From a virus (Duplodnaviria; Heunggongvirae; Uroviricota; Caudoviricetes), in IMG/VR virus record IMGVR_UViG_2913112809_000002: a DNA stretch of 64,000 bases, one strand, 5' to 3'. Below are positions 21,001 to 24,000 of this stretch, one piece after another (the first letter of the stretch is position 1; every line of letters starts with the position of its first letter). The position numbers are program-made.

Positions 21001-24000
21001 CTGGTCAAACTCATGACATTTCATGTTGAGCTGCGCACTTAAGCTGTTGCGATGCTGAAGTTCTCCGGTGAAGTAGTCATCCAGGACTTTATAGGCTGCA
21101 TATTTAAATCCGGGGTTTAGCCATGCTGCATAATCATAAGCAACAAACTTCCCGCCATATGTTCCACCGTGTACACCGCGCTCAGTAAAAACCACAGATT
21201 CGTGGTTTTTCTCCAGCTCGGCTAAGAACTCTTTGGTCTGCTTGTTTCGCAGGTAGTGGTACGGAGATTCAGATTCACTTTTACCACTGGCTTTCCACAT
21301 ATCAGTGAGGCAGATCATGCCATCTTCACCGATACGAATTGGTTGATTGAAGAGGGTTAATGATTTCATAGCGTGTACCTACTCTTTGAAATGAACCTTT
21401 GCCGCACAGGAAACCAGCCCACCGAGGCTCGCCAGCACTAACTGGTATCCTCAAAGGCCCATTCCAAAGGGTCAGGTTCGGTGTTTATTGTGCGCTGCGG
21501 TGCGCGGTGAAATACCGGTACAAAAATGCCCCGCATCTGCGAGGCATTTTCCTGAAAGTCACTTGTTAAATTTCAGTGAAATTAAAATTATTTTAAGCAC
21601 TGCGTCCTGATGTACTCCTGCAGGTAGTTAACCTGCGCGGTTATCCTGTCGATTCCACTTCGGAGACGGTAATAATTGAGTTCAGCATCTGCTGTAAGTC
21701 TTGGGCTTTCTCCATCGCCCATGCCGCTGGCTCCGGTCGTTGACTTTGCACAGGTGGCGGCGACTTGCAGGCGCTTACGCCCAGCAGAAACATCAGCACG
21801 GAGACTTTCGATAGTCGCGTTAGCATCAGCAAGCTCCTTTGTGTATCTGGCGTCGAGTTCTGCTACGTCACGTTGACGCTTCTGCATGTCAGCGATTATG
21901 GATGCGGCTTTGTCGCGCTGCTCTTTATAGGCGATGGCGTTATCACGGTAATGATTAACAGCCCATGACAGGCAGACGATGATGCAGATAATCAGAGCGG
22001 AGATAATCGCGGTTAACCTGCTCATTGCTGCCCCCACAAACAGACTTCACGCTCAATCTCACGACGGGTCATCAGCCCTTTCCATTGCTTACCGCCAGCG
22101 TATGTCCAGCGACGTAGCTGGTCACATGCGCCCTTGATATCGCCCTGGTTGATTTTGCGAAGAAGCGTCGATGTTCTGAAATTGCCTGCGCCCACGTTAT
22201 AGACGAACGAATAAAGAGCGCCGCGCGTTGTTTCCGGTATATCGACTTTGATGTACGGGTTAATTTGTCTGGCGACCGTGGCAAGGTCTTTATTCAGGAG
22301 GGCTTTGCATTCTGCTTCGGTATACGTTTTACCGGGAATGATGTCTTTTCCTGTATGCCCGTAACATACAGTCCATACACCAACAATATCTTTGTATGGT
22401 ATGTAGCTGACACCTTCCAGACCATCGTTACCACTTGGTCCAGTGATTAACACAGATGCTATAGCAATAGCCCCGCCACCAATAGCAGCAGCAACGGCTT
22501 TTCGTAATGATGGAGGCATTATTCACCTCTCGCAGCCTTTCGTCTGTCTTCTCTGATTTTGAAATACAGATTTGTCAGATAAGTGAGAAAACCCAACACA
22601 AGGCTTCCAAGCACTCCAATCGCAGCCCACTGTGACGGACTGACCTGATCCAACCACTGCAAAAACCAGTATCCTGCACTACCAGCAGATGTTCCGTAGG
22701 CAATGCCAGTTGAGATTTTGTCCATTGATTTCATAGCAACGCCTCCGCCAGTAACGGATTGCGTAGTTCTTATATTGGGAAGGGGAAAAAAGAAGGCCGC
22801 AGCGTAACTATCACTGATGAATTCAGGATAGCCAGTGGCTACGGCTCAGTTATGGTGCTGGTTAACGGACTTGAACCGCTACCCATTCGCTTACAAGGCG
22901 ACTGCTCCACCACTGGAGCTAAACCAGCATATTTGGCGGGACAGCGTGGACTCGAACCACGATAAGAAGGTTAACAGCCTTCCGTAATGACCTTTATACG
23001 ACTGACCCAAATAAAAAATCCCGAAACCGTTATGCAGGCTCTAACTATTACCTGCGAACTGTTTCGGGATTGCATTTTGCAGACCTCTCAGCCTGCGATG
23101 GTTGGAGTTCCAGACGATACGTCGAAGTGACCAACTAGGCGGAATCGGTAGTAAGCGCCACCTCTTTTTATCTCACTACCACAACGAGCGAATTAACCCA
23201 TCGTTGGGTCAAATTTACCCAACCTTATTCAAAAAGTCAATATCATGCCGTTAATATGTTGCCATCCGTGGCAATCATGCTGCTAACGTGTGACCGCATT
23301 CAAAATGTTGTCTGCGATTGACTCTTCCTTGTGGCATTGCACCACCAGAGCGTCATACAGTGGCTTAACAGTGCGTGACCAGGTGGGTTGAGTAAGATTT
23401 GGGATTAGCATCGTTACAGCGCGATATGCGGCGCTTGCTGGCATCCTTGAATAGCCGACGCCTTTGCATCTTCCGCATTCTTTCTCAACAACTCTCCCCC
23501 ACTGCTCTGTTTTTGCTATATCAACCGCACGGCCTGTACCGTGACAATCTCTGCATCTTGCGCCCGGCGTCGCGGCACTACGGCAATAATCCGCATAAGC
23601 GAATGTTGCAAGCACTTGCAGTACCTTTGCCTTAGTATTTCCTTCAAGCTTTGCCACACCACGGTATTTCCCCGATACCTTGTGTGCAAATTGCATCAGA
23701 TAGTTGATAGCCTTTTGTTTGTCGTTCTGGCTGAGTTCGTGCTTACCGCAGAATGCAGCCATTCCGAATCCGGCTTGTGATTGCGCCATCCCCATAGCAG
23801 CCATCACATCAGTACCAGAAAGAGAGTCAGAAGCCGTGGCCCGTGGTGAGTCACTCATCATCGGGCTTTTTGGCGAATGAAATTTAGCCACGCTTTCGAG
23901 TCTCATGCGCCTTCTCCCTGTACTTGAATCAATGTGAGGTTTCCGCAGAACACTGCGCCGGTATCGATATACATCTGGTTGGCAAACTTGAGTGGTTTCA

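Follow-up and report, generated by a model that had tools for sequence, protein, structure and literature searches.

A phage 21/Sf6-type tRNA-Asn and tRNA-Thr cassette between a lambda-type late control region and phage 21-type lysis genes

Introduction

[quoted passage not shown] In phage 21 (OL657228.1, 39591-39746), the order is tRNA-Asn, a 5-nt spacer, and tRNA-Thr, with a spacer of equal length in Sf6, and in both phage 21 and Sf6 the pair follows the tR' terminator and precedes the holin gene. Pairs of this 21-type are also found in Shigella Sf6 and SfI, Salmonella BTP1, ST64T, PS3, HK446, and Kapi1. Stx-phage 933W carries ileZ-argN-argO in what we take to be the same slot, the late-operon leader downstream of Q and pR'.

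Some phage tRNAs have been shown to counter nucleases that cut host tRNAs in the anticodon stem. In host tRNA-ThrU, P2-OLD cuts at a paired CNG motif (28-30 and 40-42), and it also cuts host tRNA-Asn(GUU), more slowly, while the tRNA-Thr(UGU) of phage 21 resists cleavage and rescues cells from Old toxicity, which host thrU did not (PMC12445682). This resistance operates through a shortened anticodon stem together with C28U/G42A, and in the ThrU context both the CNG change and the stem shortening were needed (PMC12445682). [quoted passage not shown] Phage T5 neutralises AriB with its own tRNA-Lys, tRNA-Thr, and tRNA-Asn (PMC12409363, PMC11464382), and its Thr and Asn variants were needed for escape from PARIS (PMC12409363). 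A different part of the molecule is recognised by the CdiA-CT(EC869)-type acceptor-stem tRNases, which need G73 and a weak 1:72 pair (PMC9071432). Here we describe an Asn/Thr pair in a window of 64,000 nucleotides, by which we mean the whole stretch of DNA analysed, and compare it with these systems.

Detection of tRNA genes

ARAGORN identified exactly four tRNAs in the 64 kb window, in two pairs that lie in segments A and B:

22853-22928, minus strand: segment A tRNA-Thr(UGU), 76 nt, encoded CCA (ARAGORN; Rfam RF00005, 56.5 bits)
22929-22933, minus strand: spacer between the segment A tRNAs, 5 nt, AAUAU (direct sequence reading)
22934-23008, minus strand: segment A tRNA-Asn(GUU), 75 nt, encoded CCA (ARAGORN; Rfam RF00005, 55.3 bits)
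43475-43550, plus strand: segment B tRNA-Thr(UGU) (ARAGORN; Rfam, 71.8 bits)
43554-43628, plus strand: segment B tRNA-Gly(UCC) (ARAGORN; Rfam, 65.6 bits)

Both pairs had been proposed in a preliminary description. ARAGORN and Rfam recovered the segment A pair at 22853-23008, and ARAGORN accepted both folds, with the anticodons Thr(UGU) and Asn(GUU) as originally read and no others; the Thr(UGU)/Gly(UCC) pair of segment B, at 43475-43628, was likewise found by both. E-values of the segment A pair against RF00005 (gathering score, 29) range from 1e-9 to 1e-11, far past chance, the tRNA-Asn match spans the full model (1-71), and the pair is also annotated by PGAP and in phage records. The plain minimum free energy (MFE) z-scores of all the tRNAs are weak (-1.7 to -2.9), making this measure a poor discriminator here.

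The segment B tRNA-Thr is K-12 thrU with A44C, and the tRNA-Gly is glyT with a compensated 6:67 change from C-G to U-A. Judging from this similarity, the segment B pair is host-derived, unlike the segment A tRNA-Asn. A different Q type lies upstream of it, and phi467 and further phages carry the same pair.

Genomic context

The segment A pair is located directly after a lambda-type Q/pR'/tR' region and before phage 21-type lysis genes, in the following arrangement:

23283-23906, minus strand: late antiterminator gene Q, lambda-type, 207 aa ORF (homology to lambda)
23212-23240, minus strand: pR'-like late promoter, TTGACT, 17 nt spacer, TAAATT (putative function, from lambda)
23019-23071, minus strand: tR' terminator hairpin, end of a lambda-type 6S leader RNA (folding; lambda tR' homology)
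23009-23018, minus strand: tR' U-tract, UUUUUUAUUU, and at the same time the mosaic joint of the lambda-type Q module with the phage 21-type tRNA-lysis module
22793-22851, minus strand: late-operon leader remnant, a 59-nt match to lambda 44945-45003 with 93% identity
22519-22734, minus strand: S21-type class II holin (pinholin), 71 aa (ORF; phage 21 homology)
22022-22519, minus strand: SAR endolysin (RrrD/R21-like), 165 aa (annotation from phage 21 and PGAP)

From 23992 down to 23011, the window shares 97% identity with lambda 43800-44781, a stretch that includes Q, and an E. coli homologue of the Q ORF is annotated as "antitermination protein". The pR'-like promoter lies inside this Q-pR'-tR' block and is the only sigma-70-like site in 22500-23400. 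The long stem of tR' has a folding energy of -28.3 kcal/mol (z = -3.6); a consensus terminator scan upstream of the tRNAs, limited to loops of 8 nt, returned no terminator, because the loop of tR' exceeds that limit. Similarity to lambda stops at 23011 and similarity to phage 21 begins at 23018. In IMG/VR loci the junction TTTTTTATTT followed directly by GGGTCAG comes after 21-type as well as lambda-type terminators, and the combination of a lambda-type Q with the Asn/Thr cassette is found in 17 IMG/VR loci. Compared with lambda, the tRNA cassette stands in for about 163 bp between tR' and the leader remnant. Further downstream, the holin region shares 97% identity with the part of phage 21 that is annotated S21-71/S21-68, and PGAP names the holin homologue "class II holin family protein".

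The closest described relative is the phage 21-type pair: gene order and placement between tR' and holin are those of phage 21, the tRNA-Asn is identical (75/75), the tRNA-Thr nearly so (74/76), and the S21/R21-type lysis genes are alike, but the phage 21 cassette follows a 21-type Q whereas that of the window follows a lambda-type Q/pR'/tR'. The pair differs from the 933W cassette in its tRNA species, and no toxin gene follows it. Among sampled relatives such cassettes are modular, with tRNA-Asn followed by Thr, Gly, Arg, Phe-Thr-Arg, or other sets. We also considered that the pair might be an attP or integration remnant and rejected this, as both genes are complete, not identical to host genes, far from integrases, and placed in a late-leader slot typical of lambdoid phages.

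By analogy with lambda, RNA polymerase starting at pR' would normally halt at tR' and would pass it once Q is made. With read-through of tR', both tRNAs would come first in the late-operon transcript; since the tRNA-Asn gene begins right after the U-tract, there is no room for a separate tRNA promoter. Host RNase P and 3' processing enzymes would presumably then free both tRNAs, although the phage L paper leaves open whether these tRNAs are cut out of the late mRNA. A literature search for BTP1 transcript data gave no relevant match.

Structure and conservation of the tRNA-Asn

The preliminary description pointed to a U-U mismatch in the tRNA-Asn's acceptor stem and to a D stem of only 3 bp, and took the gene to be possibly decaying or non-canonical. 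Both features are present. The acceptor stem reads GGGUCAG/CUGUCCC, with U4 opposite a U; the pair had been indexed as 4:68, which corresponds to the standard 4:69 because this tRNA has no position 17. In the D stem, G10-C25, U11-A24, and A12-U23 are paired and U13•U22 is a mismatch, leaving 3 bp, so that the two non-standard stem pairs are 4:69 in the acceptor and 13:22 in the D stem. The remainder of the molecule is regular, with a G1-C72 pair, discriminator G73, and an encoded CCA. The conserved U8, A14, G18-G19, A21, U33, A37, and T54-Psi55-C56 are all there, as can be read in GGGUCAGUCGUAUAAAGGUCAUUAC...CUGUUAA...GGUUCGAGUCC; the anticodon loop CUGUUAA is that of host asnT, and the UUCGAGU T-loop is intact.

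If the gene were a decaying or non-functional pseudo-tRNA, U4•U69 and the 3-bp D stem would represent erosion. Besides these two mismatches, this reading can draw on an Rfam score of 55 bits, against 66-72 bits for the host-like tRNAs of segment B, on an MFE modestly better than that of shuffles (z = -1.74), and on a related gene in Serratia phage BF that is annotated as a pseudo-tRNA. The comparative data nevertheless already contradict it. At least 39 phage records from three host genera (Escherichia, Shigella, and Salmonella), including phages 21, Sf6, BTP1, ST64T, and SfI, carry the 75-nt gene with 100% identity. Across 137 relatives U4 is invariant (137/137), and 4:69 is U•U in 125, on three acceptor backgrounds (GGGUCAG/CUGUCCC, GGGUCGA/UCGUCCC, and GGGUAGG/CCUUCCC). 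The partner of U4 is U, G, or C and almost never A, and the neighbouring pairs 5:68, 6:67, and 7:66 are exchanged by compensatory changes while the 4:69 mismatch is kept. In 29 distinct relatives, 12 of the 21 pairs show double (compensatory) changes and 91.5% of cells pair. Because the search pattern for relatives fixed the D arm and anticodon loop, with G31 and C39, the covariation is informative only for the acceptor and T stems and for part of the anticodon stem. For the same reason, the invariance of C39 among these sequences is in part a product of the pattern. The observed pairing and covariation were reached in none of 500 shuffles, and slid controls gave 35-52% pairing. The U13•U22 3-bp D stem also occurs in the functional E. 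coli glyT and in the tRNA-Gly of segment B, and we found none of the signs of a pseudogene in the tRNA-Asn, namely lineage-specific disabling changes or loss of conservation, identity elements, or CCA.

We therefore regard decay of the tRNA-Asn as extremely improbable. This comparison shows U4•U69 and the 3-bp D stem to be conserved traits of a phage tRNA-Asn lineage and not damage, and "non-canonical" is a fair description only if taken as a trait of the family and not as an anomaly of one gene. The E. coli AsnRS identity set consists of G34-U35-U36 and G73 (Li, Pelka and Schulman 1993, cited in PMC9976931). The window tRNA-Asn retains both the GUU anticodon and G73, and charging is predicted.

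This lineage extends to large lytic phages. Mosigvirus G2285, Klebsiella FBKp34, Serratia BF, and Erwinia jumbo phages encode tRNA-Asn(GUU) genes that share with the window gene the D arm UCGUAUAAAGGUYAUUAC, the anticodon loop, U4, and G73, and that are clearly homologous to it and not to host asnT. Their 4:69 pair is U•G where that of the window is U•U, both being non-Watson-Crick, and they lie inside large tRNA arrays, some without an encoded CCA. A second candidate was rejected as a homologue: P1-like plasmid prophages carry adjacent Asn and Thr genes in the same order, but in a different genomic context, and their tRNA-Asn, with G4-C69, a fully Watson-Crick acceptor stem, a canonical D arm, and an Rfam score of 74 bits, belongs to a different lineage, so that only the Thr genes, about 80% similar, are related. 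Capture of a host gene was also rejected, as the window tRNA-Asn, apart from its anticodon loop, is unlike asnT and clusters with tRNA-Asn genes of phages.

Anticodon stems and codon usage

Both window tRNAs differ from their host counterparts at the sites used by the anticodon-stem nucleases. Host thrU has CUG/CAG and UAAUCA, whereas the window tRNA-Thr has UCG/CGA, G27•A43, and UAAGCG; host asnT has CGG/CCG and UAAUCC, whereas the window tRNA-Asn has AAG/CUU and UAACCU. The tRNA-Thr thus combines the UGU anticodon, which it shares with the P2-OLD suppressors tRNA-Thr21 and tRNA-Thr6 (PMC12445682), with the traits linked to P2-OLD resistance, an altered CNG and a stem shortened by the 27:43 mismatch, and its anticodon arm is identical to that of tRNA-Thr21, the phage 21 allele tested in that study. 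The tRNA-Asn keeps a full 5-bp anticodon stem and lacks the host determinants U39 and paired CNG, with C39 instead. Host U39, part of the UAAU motif, is lost in both window tRNAs, and the Thr and Asn of T5 likewise have G39. The two anticodons represent two of the three types targeted by AriB, and both are Old substrates in the host. The T5 tRNAs share these anticodons but are not sequence relatives of the window tRNAs; T5 is a lytic phage that expresses them from its own promoters, and it carries a tRNA-Lys, which the window cassette lacks.

We believe that the pair is most likely a phage 21/Sf6-type late-leader cassette of two functional tRNA genes that would provide nuclease-resistant stand-ins as well as codon supply. 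Both tRNAs bear the identity elements of host synthetases (AsnRS and ThrRS), so far as can be predicted, and their anticodon stems differ from the host exactly at the recognition and cut sites of Toprim anticodon-stem nucleases; with such stems, they could stand in for host tRNA-ThrU and tRNA-Asn depleted by P2 Old or PARIS AriB. As neither carries the host cleavage motifs, we favour counter-defence, and the added decoding capacity for ACA and Asn codons would be an additional function. Resistance to P2 Old, and rescue, have been shown for the phage 21 tRNA-Thr, and by inference may hold for the tRNA-Asn and the window Thr allele. Our literature search found no paper linking a lambdoid tRNA-Asn to PARIS and no experiment on its resistance or rescue. 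Several points speak against this reading. Late-operon expression may come too late against defences that are triggered by early proteins such as Gam and Ocr. The anticodon stem of the tRNA-Asn has its full 5 bp, whereas stem shortening was needed for resistance in the ThrU context. The Klebsiella-type tRNA-Asn allele (Mulock and others) has a full paired CNG (CAG/CUG), so Old resistance cannot account for the whole family.

Codon supplementation alone, in which the tRNAs only supply decoders of ACA and AAC/AAU and their sequence differences are historical accidents, is quite unlikely in our view. ACA is used 12.6 times per 1000 codons in the segment A late ORFs against 5.5 in the host reference, a 50-kb K-12 sample (about 2.3-fold), and Asn codons 48.5 against 37.3 (1.3-fold). 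The SfI paper gives an ACA bias of 17.3 versus 7.1, and in the major capsid gene of phage L, according to the phage L paper, 24 of 25 Asn codons are AAC. However, GGA (16.3 versus 6.2 per 1000) and AGA (4.3 versus 1.5) are as enriched as ACA or more, and segment A has no matching tRNA for them, which weakens a purely codon-driven account. The SfI authors, moreover, detected no bias in Asn codons and regarded the role of the tRNA-Asn as unclear. Supplementation also accounts neither for anticodon stems that depart from the host's precisely at the Old and AriB determinants nor for the rescue of cells from Old toxicity by the phage 21 tRNA-Thr where host thrU failed.

A stronger form of the counter-defence reading is possible, but we hold it to be doubtful: that the cassette is a dedicated two-tRNA module against Old and AriB, Toprim anticodon-stem nucleases of P2-like phages and P4-like satellites, with a multiply hardened tRNA-Asn and a positively maintained U4 mismatch. 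Under this proposal the tRNA-Asn, without CNG and with C39 for U39, would evade Old and AriB, and its G1-C72 pair, in place of the weak U1-A72 of the host, would let it escape CdiA-CT(EC869)-type acceptor-stem tRNases as well. One possibility for the U4 mismatch is that it tunes acceptor-stem flexibility, or recognition by EF-Tu and nucleases. The Klebsiella-type tRNA-Asn allele (Mulock and others) has a full paired CNG (CAG/CUG), so Old resistance cannot account for the whole family.

The tRNA-Thr allele

The preliminary description stated that the tRNA-Thr folds well, which stands for its secondary structure but passes over a private substitution at a conserved position. The two differences from the phage 21 tRNA-Thr are A16G (22913) and A21G (22908), and together they are private to the window among more than 100 relatives. 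No match to this allele was found in 5,426 E. coli genomes or 50,697 phage records, in which the best match to the pair was 98.8%; IMG/VR had no match to the A16G+A21G allele or to either single-step intermediate, and the JGI metagenomes none to the double substitution. From these searches, the window Thr allele is rare or private. It also carries C14 in place of the usual A14, along with G27•A43, U28-A42, and G39. The ThrRS identity elements, G1-C72, C2-G71, G35, and U36, are all present.

The cassette family may thus be functional while this one allele is impaired, with A16G and A21G locking the D arm and disturbing the elbow. The A21G change falls at a near-universal position, and the predicted D hairpin has 6 bp and a 4-nt loop that holds G18 and G19; folding gives -29.1 kcal/mol for this extended hairpin against -23.7. 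The Rfam score, at 56.5 bits, is 5 bits below the 61.5 of the phage 21 allele. With two changes in 76 nt, the allele diverges as much as the local background (about 2.5%), as expected without constraint. On the other hand, two substitutions are too few to judge, and the cloverleaf, anticodon arm, T arm, acceptor stem, and CCA are intact. The lineage already tolerates C14, the phage 21 allele, which also has C14, is active in vivo, and the adjacent Q, holin, and endolysin ORFs are intact, so that the prophage is not obviously degraded. Taken together, we see impairment of the tRNA-Thr as conceivable, but as the less probable outcome.

Conclusions

The cassette is a clean example of phage tRNAs under Q-antitermination control. 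In genome annotation, conserved features such as the U•U pair and the 3-bp D stem are no grounds for calling a pseudogene; the unusual gene of this pair is the tRNA-Thr, with A16G and A21G, and not the tRNA-Asn. The two anticodons of the cassette match the targets of Old and PARIS, nucleases that compete with lambdoid phages, and the comparison gives a specific question, which is whether AriB, Old, and CdiA-CT leave the lambdoid tRNA-Asn uncut.

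tRNA genes of the window

ARAGORN identified four tRNA genes in the window, one pair in each of the two prophage segments, A and B:

22853-22928, minus strand, tRNA-Thr(UGU), segment A (ARAGORN; Rfam tRNA model, 56.5 bits)
22934-23008, minus strand, tRNA-Asn(GUU), segment A (ARAGORN; Rfam tRNA model, 55.3 bits)
43475-43550, plus strand, tRNA-Thr(UGU), segment B (ARAGORN)
43554-43628, plus strand, tRNA-Gly(UCC), segment B (ARAGORN)

The Rfam tRNA model has a gathering score of 29, and the E-values of the segment A pair were 1e-9 to 1e-11. Both segment A genes encode CCA. This pair is real according to ARAGORN, Rfam, and its annotation in phage records, and the coordinates and anticodons that a preliminary description had given it were exact; the Thr(UGU)/Gly(UCC) pair placed by the same description at 43475-43628 in segment B was also recovered by ARAGORN. 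Its observation is thus confirmed, and its interpretation is supported in part.

The same Asn/Thr pair carries PGAP annotations in several hundred complete genomes of E. coli, and with the 171-nt pair as query we found it at 80% coverage or more in 361 of 5,426 genomes of this species. Among phages, it has been annotated in phage 21, Sf6, SfI, BTP1, HK446, Kapi1, mEp506, and numerous P22-like phages of Salmonella; at least 39 phage records contain the tRNA-Asn gene at 100% identity. Published descriptions of the pair cover SfI, Sf6, ST64T, PS3, and phage 21 (PMC3636060), as well as phage L (PMC8022706), and this cassette is therefore an already known feature.

Rfam also identified regulatory RNAs of both prophage segments, which are unrelated to the tRNA finding:

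34049-34107, plus strand, lambda cIII thermoregulator
39434-39510, plus strand, isrK
39539-39623, plus strand, C4 antisense RNA with a1/b1 target
40331-40501, plus strand, sok antitoxin RNA

Genomic setting

The segment A pair sits between the Q gene and the holin and endolysin genes:

23283-23906, minus strand, Q gene, 207 aa
22519-22734, minus strand, class II holin, 71 aa
22022-22519, minus strand, endolysin, 165 aa

From 23992 down to 23011 the window is 97% identical to lambda 43800-44781 (Q, pR', 6S leader, tR'), and from 23018 downward it is 97% identical to phage 21 (tRNAs, S21, R21). A mosaic joint therefore lies within the tR' U-tract, at 23009-23018, where a lambda-type Q/pR'/tR' module meets a phage 21-type tRNA/lysis module. 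RNA folding gave the tR' hairpin (23019-23071) an energy of -28.3 kcal/mol (z = -3.6); UUUUUUAUUU follows it directly, and the tRNA-Asn gene begins at the very next base. Comparison with lambda showed that about 163 bp of its leader are replaced by the tRNA cassette. A promoter scan found no promoter-like site between tR' and the tRNAs, and given this and the lambda-type pR'/tR' upstream, we naturally infer that the cassette would be transcribed by Q-modified polymerase from pR'.

The tRNA-Asn gene

The sequence of the tRNA-Asn is GGGUCAG UC GUAU AAAGGUCA UUAC G GAAGG CUGUUAA CCUUC UUAU CGUGG UUCGAGU CCACG CUGUCCC G CCA. The U-U acceptor mismatch previously reported at 4:68 is present, with U4 opposite the U at raw index 68 (standard position 69), as is the 3-bp D stem, which carries a U13•U22 mismatch. 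E. coli K-12 glyT and the tRNA-Gly of segment B have a D stem of the same kind, 3 bp with U13•U22. The anticodon loop, CUGUUAA, is identical to that of the host gene asnT, and the AsnRS identity set of GUU and G73 (PMC9976931) is intact.

To place this gene among its relatives, we used 137 instances of the phage tRNA-Asn lineage (30 distinct) from GTDB species genomes and IMG/VR, adding diverged homologues from INPHARED phage records. Conservation of the D arm and of G31/C39 was imposed by our search pattern, which held them constant; variation was allowed in the acceptor and T stems. In an alignment of 29 distinct sequences, 91.5% of cells in the cloverleaf were paired and 12 of 21 pairs showed two-sided changes, values matched by none of 500 shuffles, while slid controls gave pairing of only 35-52%. 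U4 is invariant across the sample, and its partner at position 69 is U in 125 of the 137 instances; in large lytic phages it is G, rarely it is C, and only once is it A. The U4•U69 mismatch occurs on three acceptor backgrounds (GGGUCAG/CUGUCCC, GGGUCGA/UCGUCCC, and GGGUAGG/CCUUCCC), having been kept while 5:68, 6:67, and 7:66 were swapped through compensatory changes. Of the earlier suggestion that this gene may be decaying or non-canonical, only the second part holds: the covariation and the invariant U4 argue against decay, and the gene is real and non-canonical.

The tRNA-Thr gene

The unusual member of the pair is the tRNA-Thr. G27•A43 caps its anticodon stem, and C14 stands in place of the near-universal A14 (window 22915), two features on which the preliminary description was silent. 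Position 14 is C in the lambdoid tRNA-Thr lineage and U or G in some relatives (L035, L090, L082, and L056 among the sampled loci of this lineage), and the usual U8-A14 tertiary pair is therefore impossible; the phage 21 allele, which lacks A14, is active in vivo (PMC12445682). Two substitutions, A16G (window 22913) and A21G (window 22908), separate the window gene from the phage 21 allele. They account for the best match to the pair being 98.8% across the 5,426 E. coli genomes and 50,697 INPHARED phage records, and were found in none of more than 100 sampled tRNA-Thr relatives. The double-substitution allele had no matches in IMG/VR or the JGI metagenomes, and both single-step intermediates had none in IMG/VR. 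As G21 is able to pair with C14, the D arm is predicted to form a 6-bp hairpin whose 4-nt loop, GUGG, holds G18 and G19. The fold energy of the window tRNA-Thr is -29.1 versus -23.7 kcal/mol, and its Rfam score is 5 bits lower (56.5 versus 61.5). Two changes in 76 nt match the local divergence of about 2.5% from the nearest E. coli relatives, and these may reflect neutral drift, the onset of decay, or adaptation.

Related cassettes and the segment B pair

Modular tRNA arrays occupy the slot after tR' in the sampled loci. In IMG/VR, the junction TTTTTTATTT/GGGTCAG follows a lambda-type tR' in 17 loci and a 21-type tR' in 81, and it is identical behind either terminator. Downstream of the Asn gene lies Thr (99 loci), nothing (9), Gly (8), Phe-Thr-Arg (6), or another combination. 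Two loci (L062 and L065) carry chimeras of a tRNA-Asn 5' part (about half to two-thirds) and a tRNA-Gly(UCC) 3' part, joined at the shared GGTTCGA T-loop, and a third (L139) joins a 21-type Thr 5' part to a thrU-type remainder. The cassette tRNAs appear to be recombination points. Klebsiella phage 2b LV-2017 (L007) has two tRNA-Asn(GUU) genes, at 1501-1575 and 2396-2470; the first ends in ACA rather than CCA, and the second combines a different body with an unchanged 5' acceptor strand, GGGUCAG; its 4:69 pair is U4•C69, and its T-loop contains A56, which is unusual.

Sequence comparison shows that the pair in segment B derives from the host: it closely copies the thrU/glyT genes, with tyrU missing. 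Its Thr is identical to K-12 thrU but for A44C, and its Gly to glyT but for a compensated 6:67 change from C-G to U-A. A different Q type lies upstream of it, and the same pair occurs in phi467 and related phages. The pair retains the host motifs recognised by two anticodon-stem nucleases, Old and AriB, and therefore probably serves a different purpose from the segment A cassette, such as dosage.

Possible roles of the cassette

The cassette tRNAs most probably replace host Asn and Thr tRNAs depleted by the Toprim nucleases Old and PARIS AriB. P2 Old cuts host tRNA-ThrU, at a CNG motif paired between positions 28-30 and 40-42. Old also cuts tRNA-Asn(GUU), Lys, and Val at a slower rate, and phage tRNA-Thr(UGU) species, explicitly including that of phage 21, rescue cells and resist cleavage because their anticodon stem is shorter and bases close to the cut sites are changed, C28U/G42A (PMC12445682). 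The prime substrates of AriB are Lys(UUU) and Thr(UGU), with Asn(GUU) secondary but biologically relevant; within U36-A-A-U39-C40 its cut follows C40 and is lost with U39A, and the Lys, Thr, and Asn variants of T5 jointly neutralise PARIS (PMC12409363).

Anticodon arms of host and phage tRNAs (28-30/40-42; 36-41; 27:43)
Host thrU: CUG/CAG; UAAUCA; A-U
Window Thr: UCG/CGA; UAAGCG; G•A
Host asnT: CGG/CCG; UAAUCC; G•U
Window Asn: AAG/CUU; UAACCU; G-C
T5 Thr: UUG/CAU; UAAGCA; G-C
T5 Asn: CAU/UUG; UAAGUU; G•A

The T5 Thr and Asn genes have G39 in place of U39, and the anticodon arm of the window Thr is identical to that of the experimentally tested phage 21 tRNA-Thr, making its apparent defect, G27•A43, a documented resistance feature. 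From the nuclease targets and this comparison, the cassette thus comprises exactly the two non-Lys species depleted by Old and AriB, each altered at known determinants. However, the Klebsiella-type tRNA-Asn allele retains a CNG pair, the anticodon stem of the window tRNA-Asn keeps all 5 bp whereas the ThrU context required both shortening and a motif change, and late-operon timing may restrict use against early-triggered defences. The window tRNA-Asn also has G1-C72 where host asnT has U1-A72. The acceptor-stem tRNase CdiA-CT(EC869) needs G73 and a weak 1:72 pair, and G1-C72 variants are cleaved poorly (PMC9071432); we can only infer that this pair may bear on cleavage of the phage tRNA.

Codon supply is a plausible additional benefit. 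In late ORFs, ACA reaches 12.6 per 1000 codons versus 5.5 in a K-12 sample, and Asn codons 48.5 versus 37.3, but GGA and AGA are as enriched and segment A has no matching tRNA. Across segment A ORFs (window 1-38500), GGA occurs at 16-21 and AGA at 4-15 per 1000, 2.6 to 10 times the K-12 sample; tRNA-Gly(UCC) and tRNA-Arg(UCU), absent from segment A, are present in related cassettes elsewhere.

It is intriguing, if rather doubtful, to consider that the tRNA-Asn, with the conserved U4•N69 as part of this, could be a nuclease-hardened replacement, and that the Asn-Thr cassette could represent a dedicated anti-Old/PARIS module.
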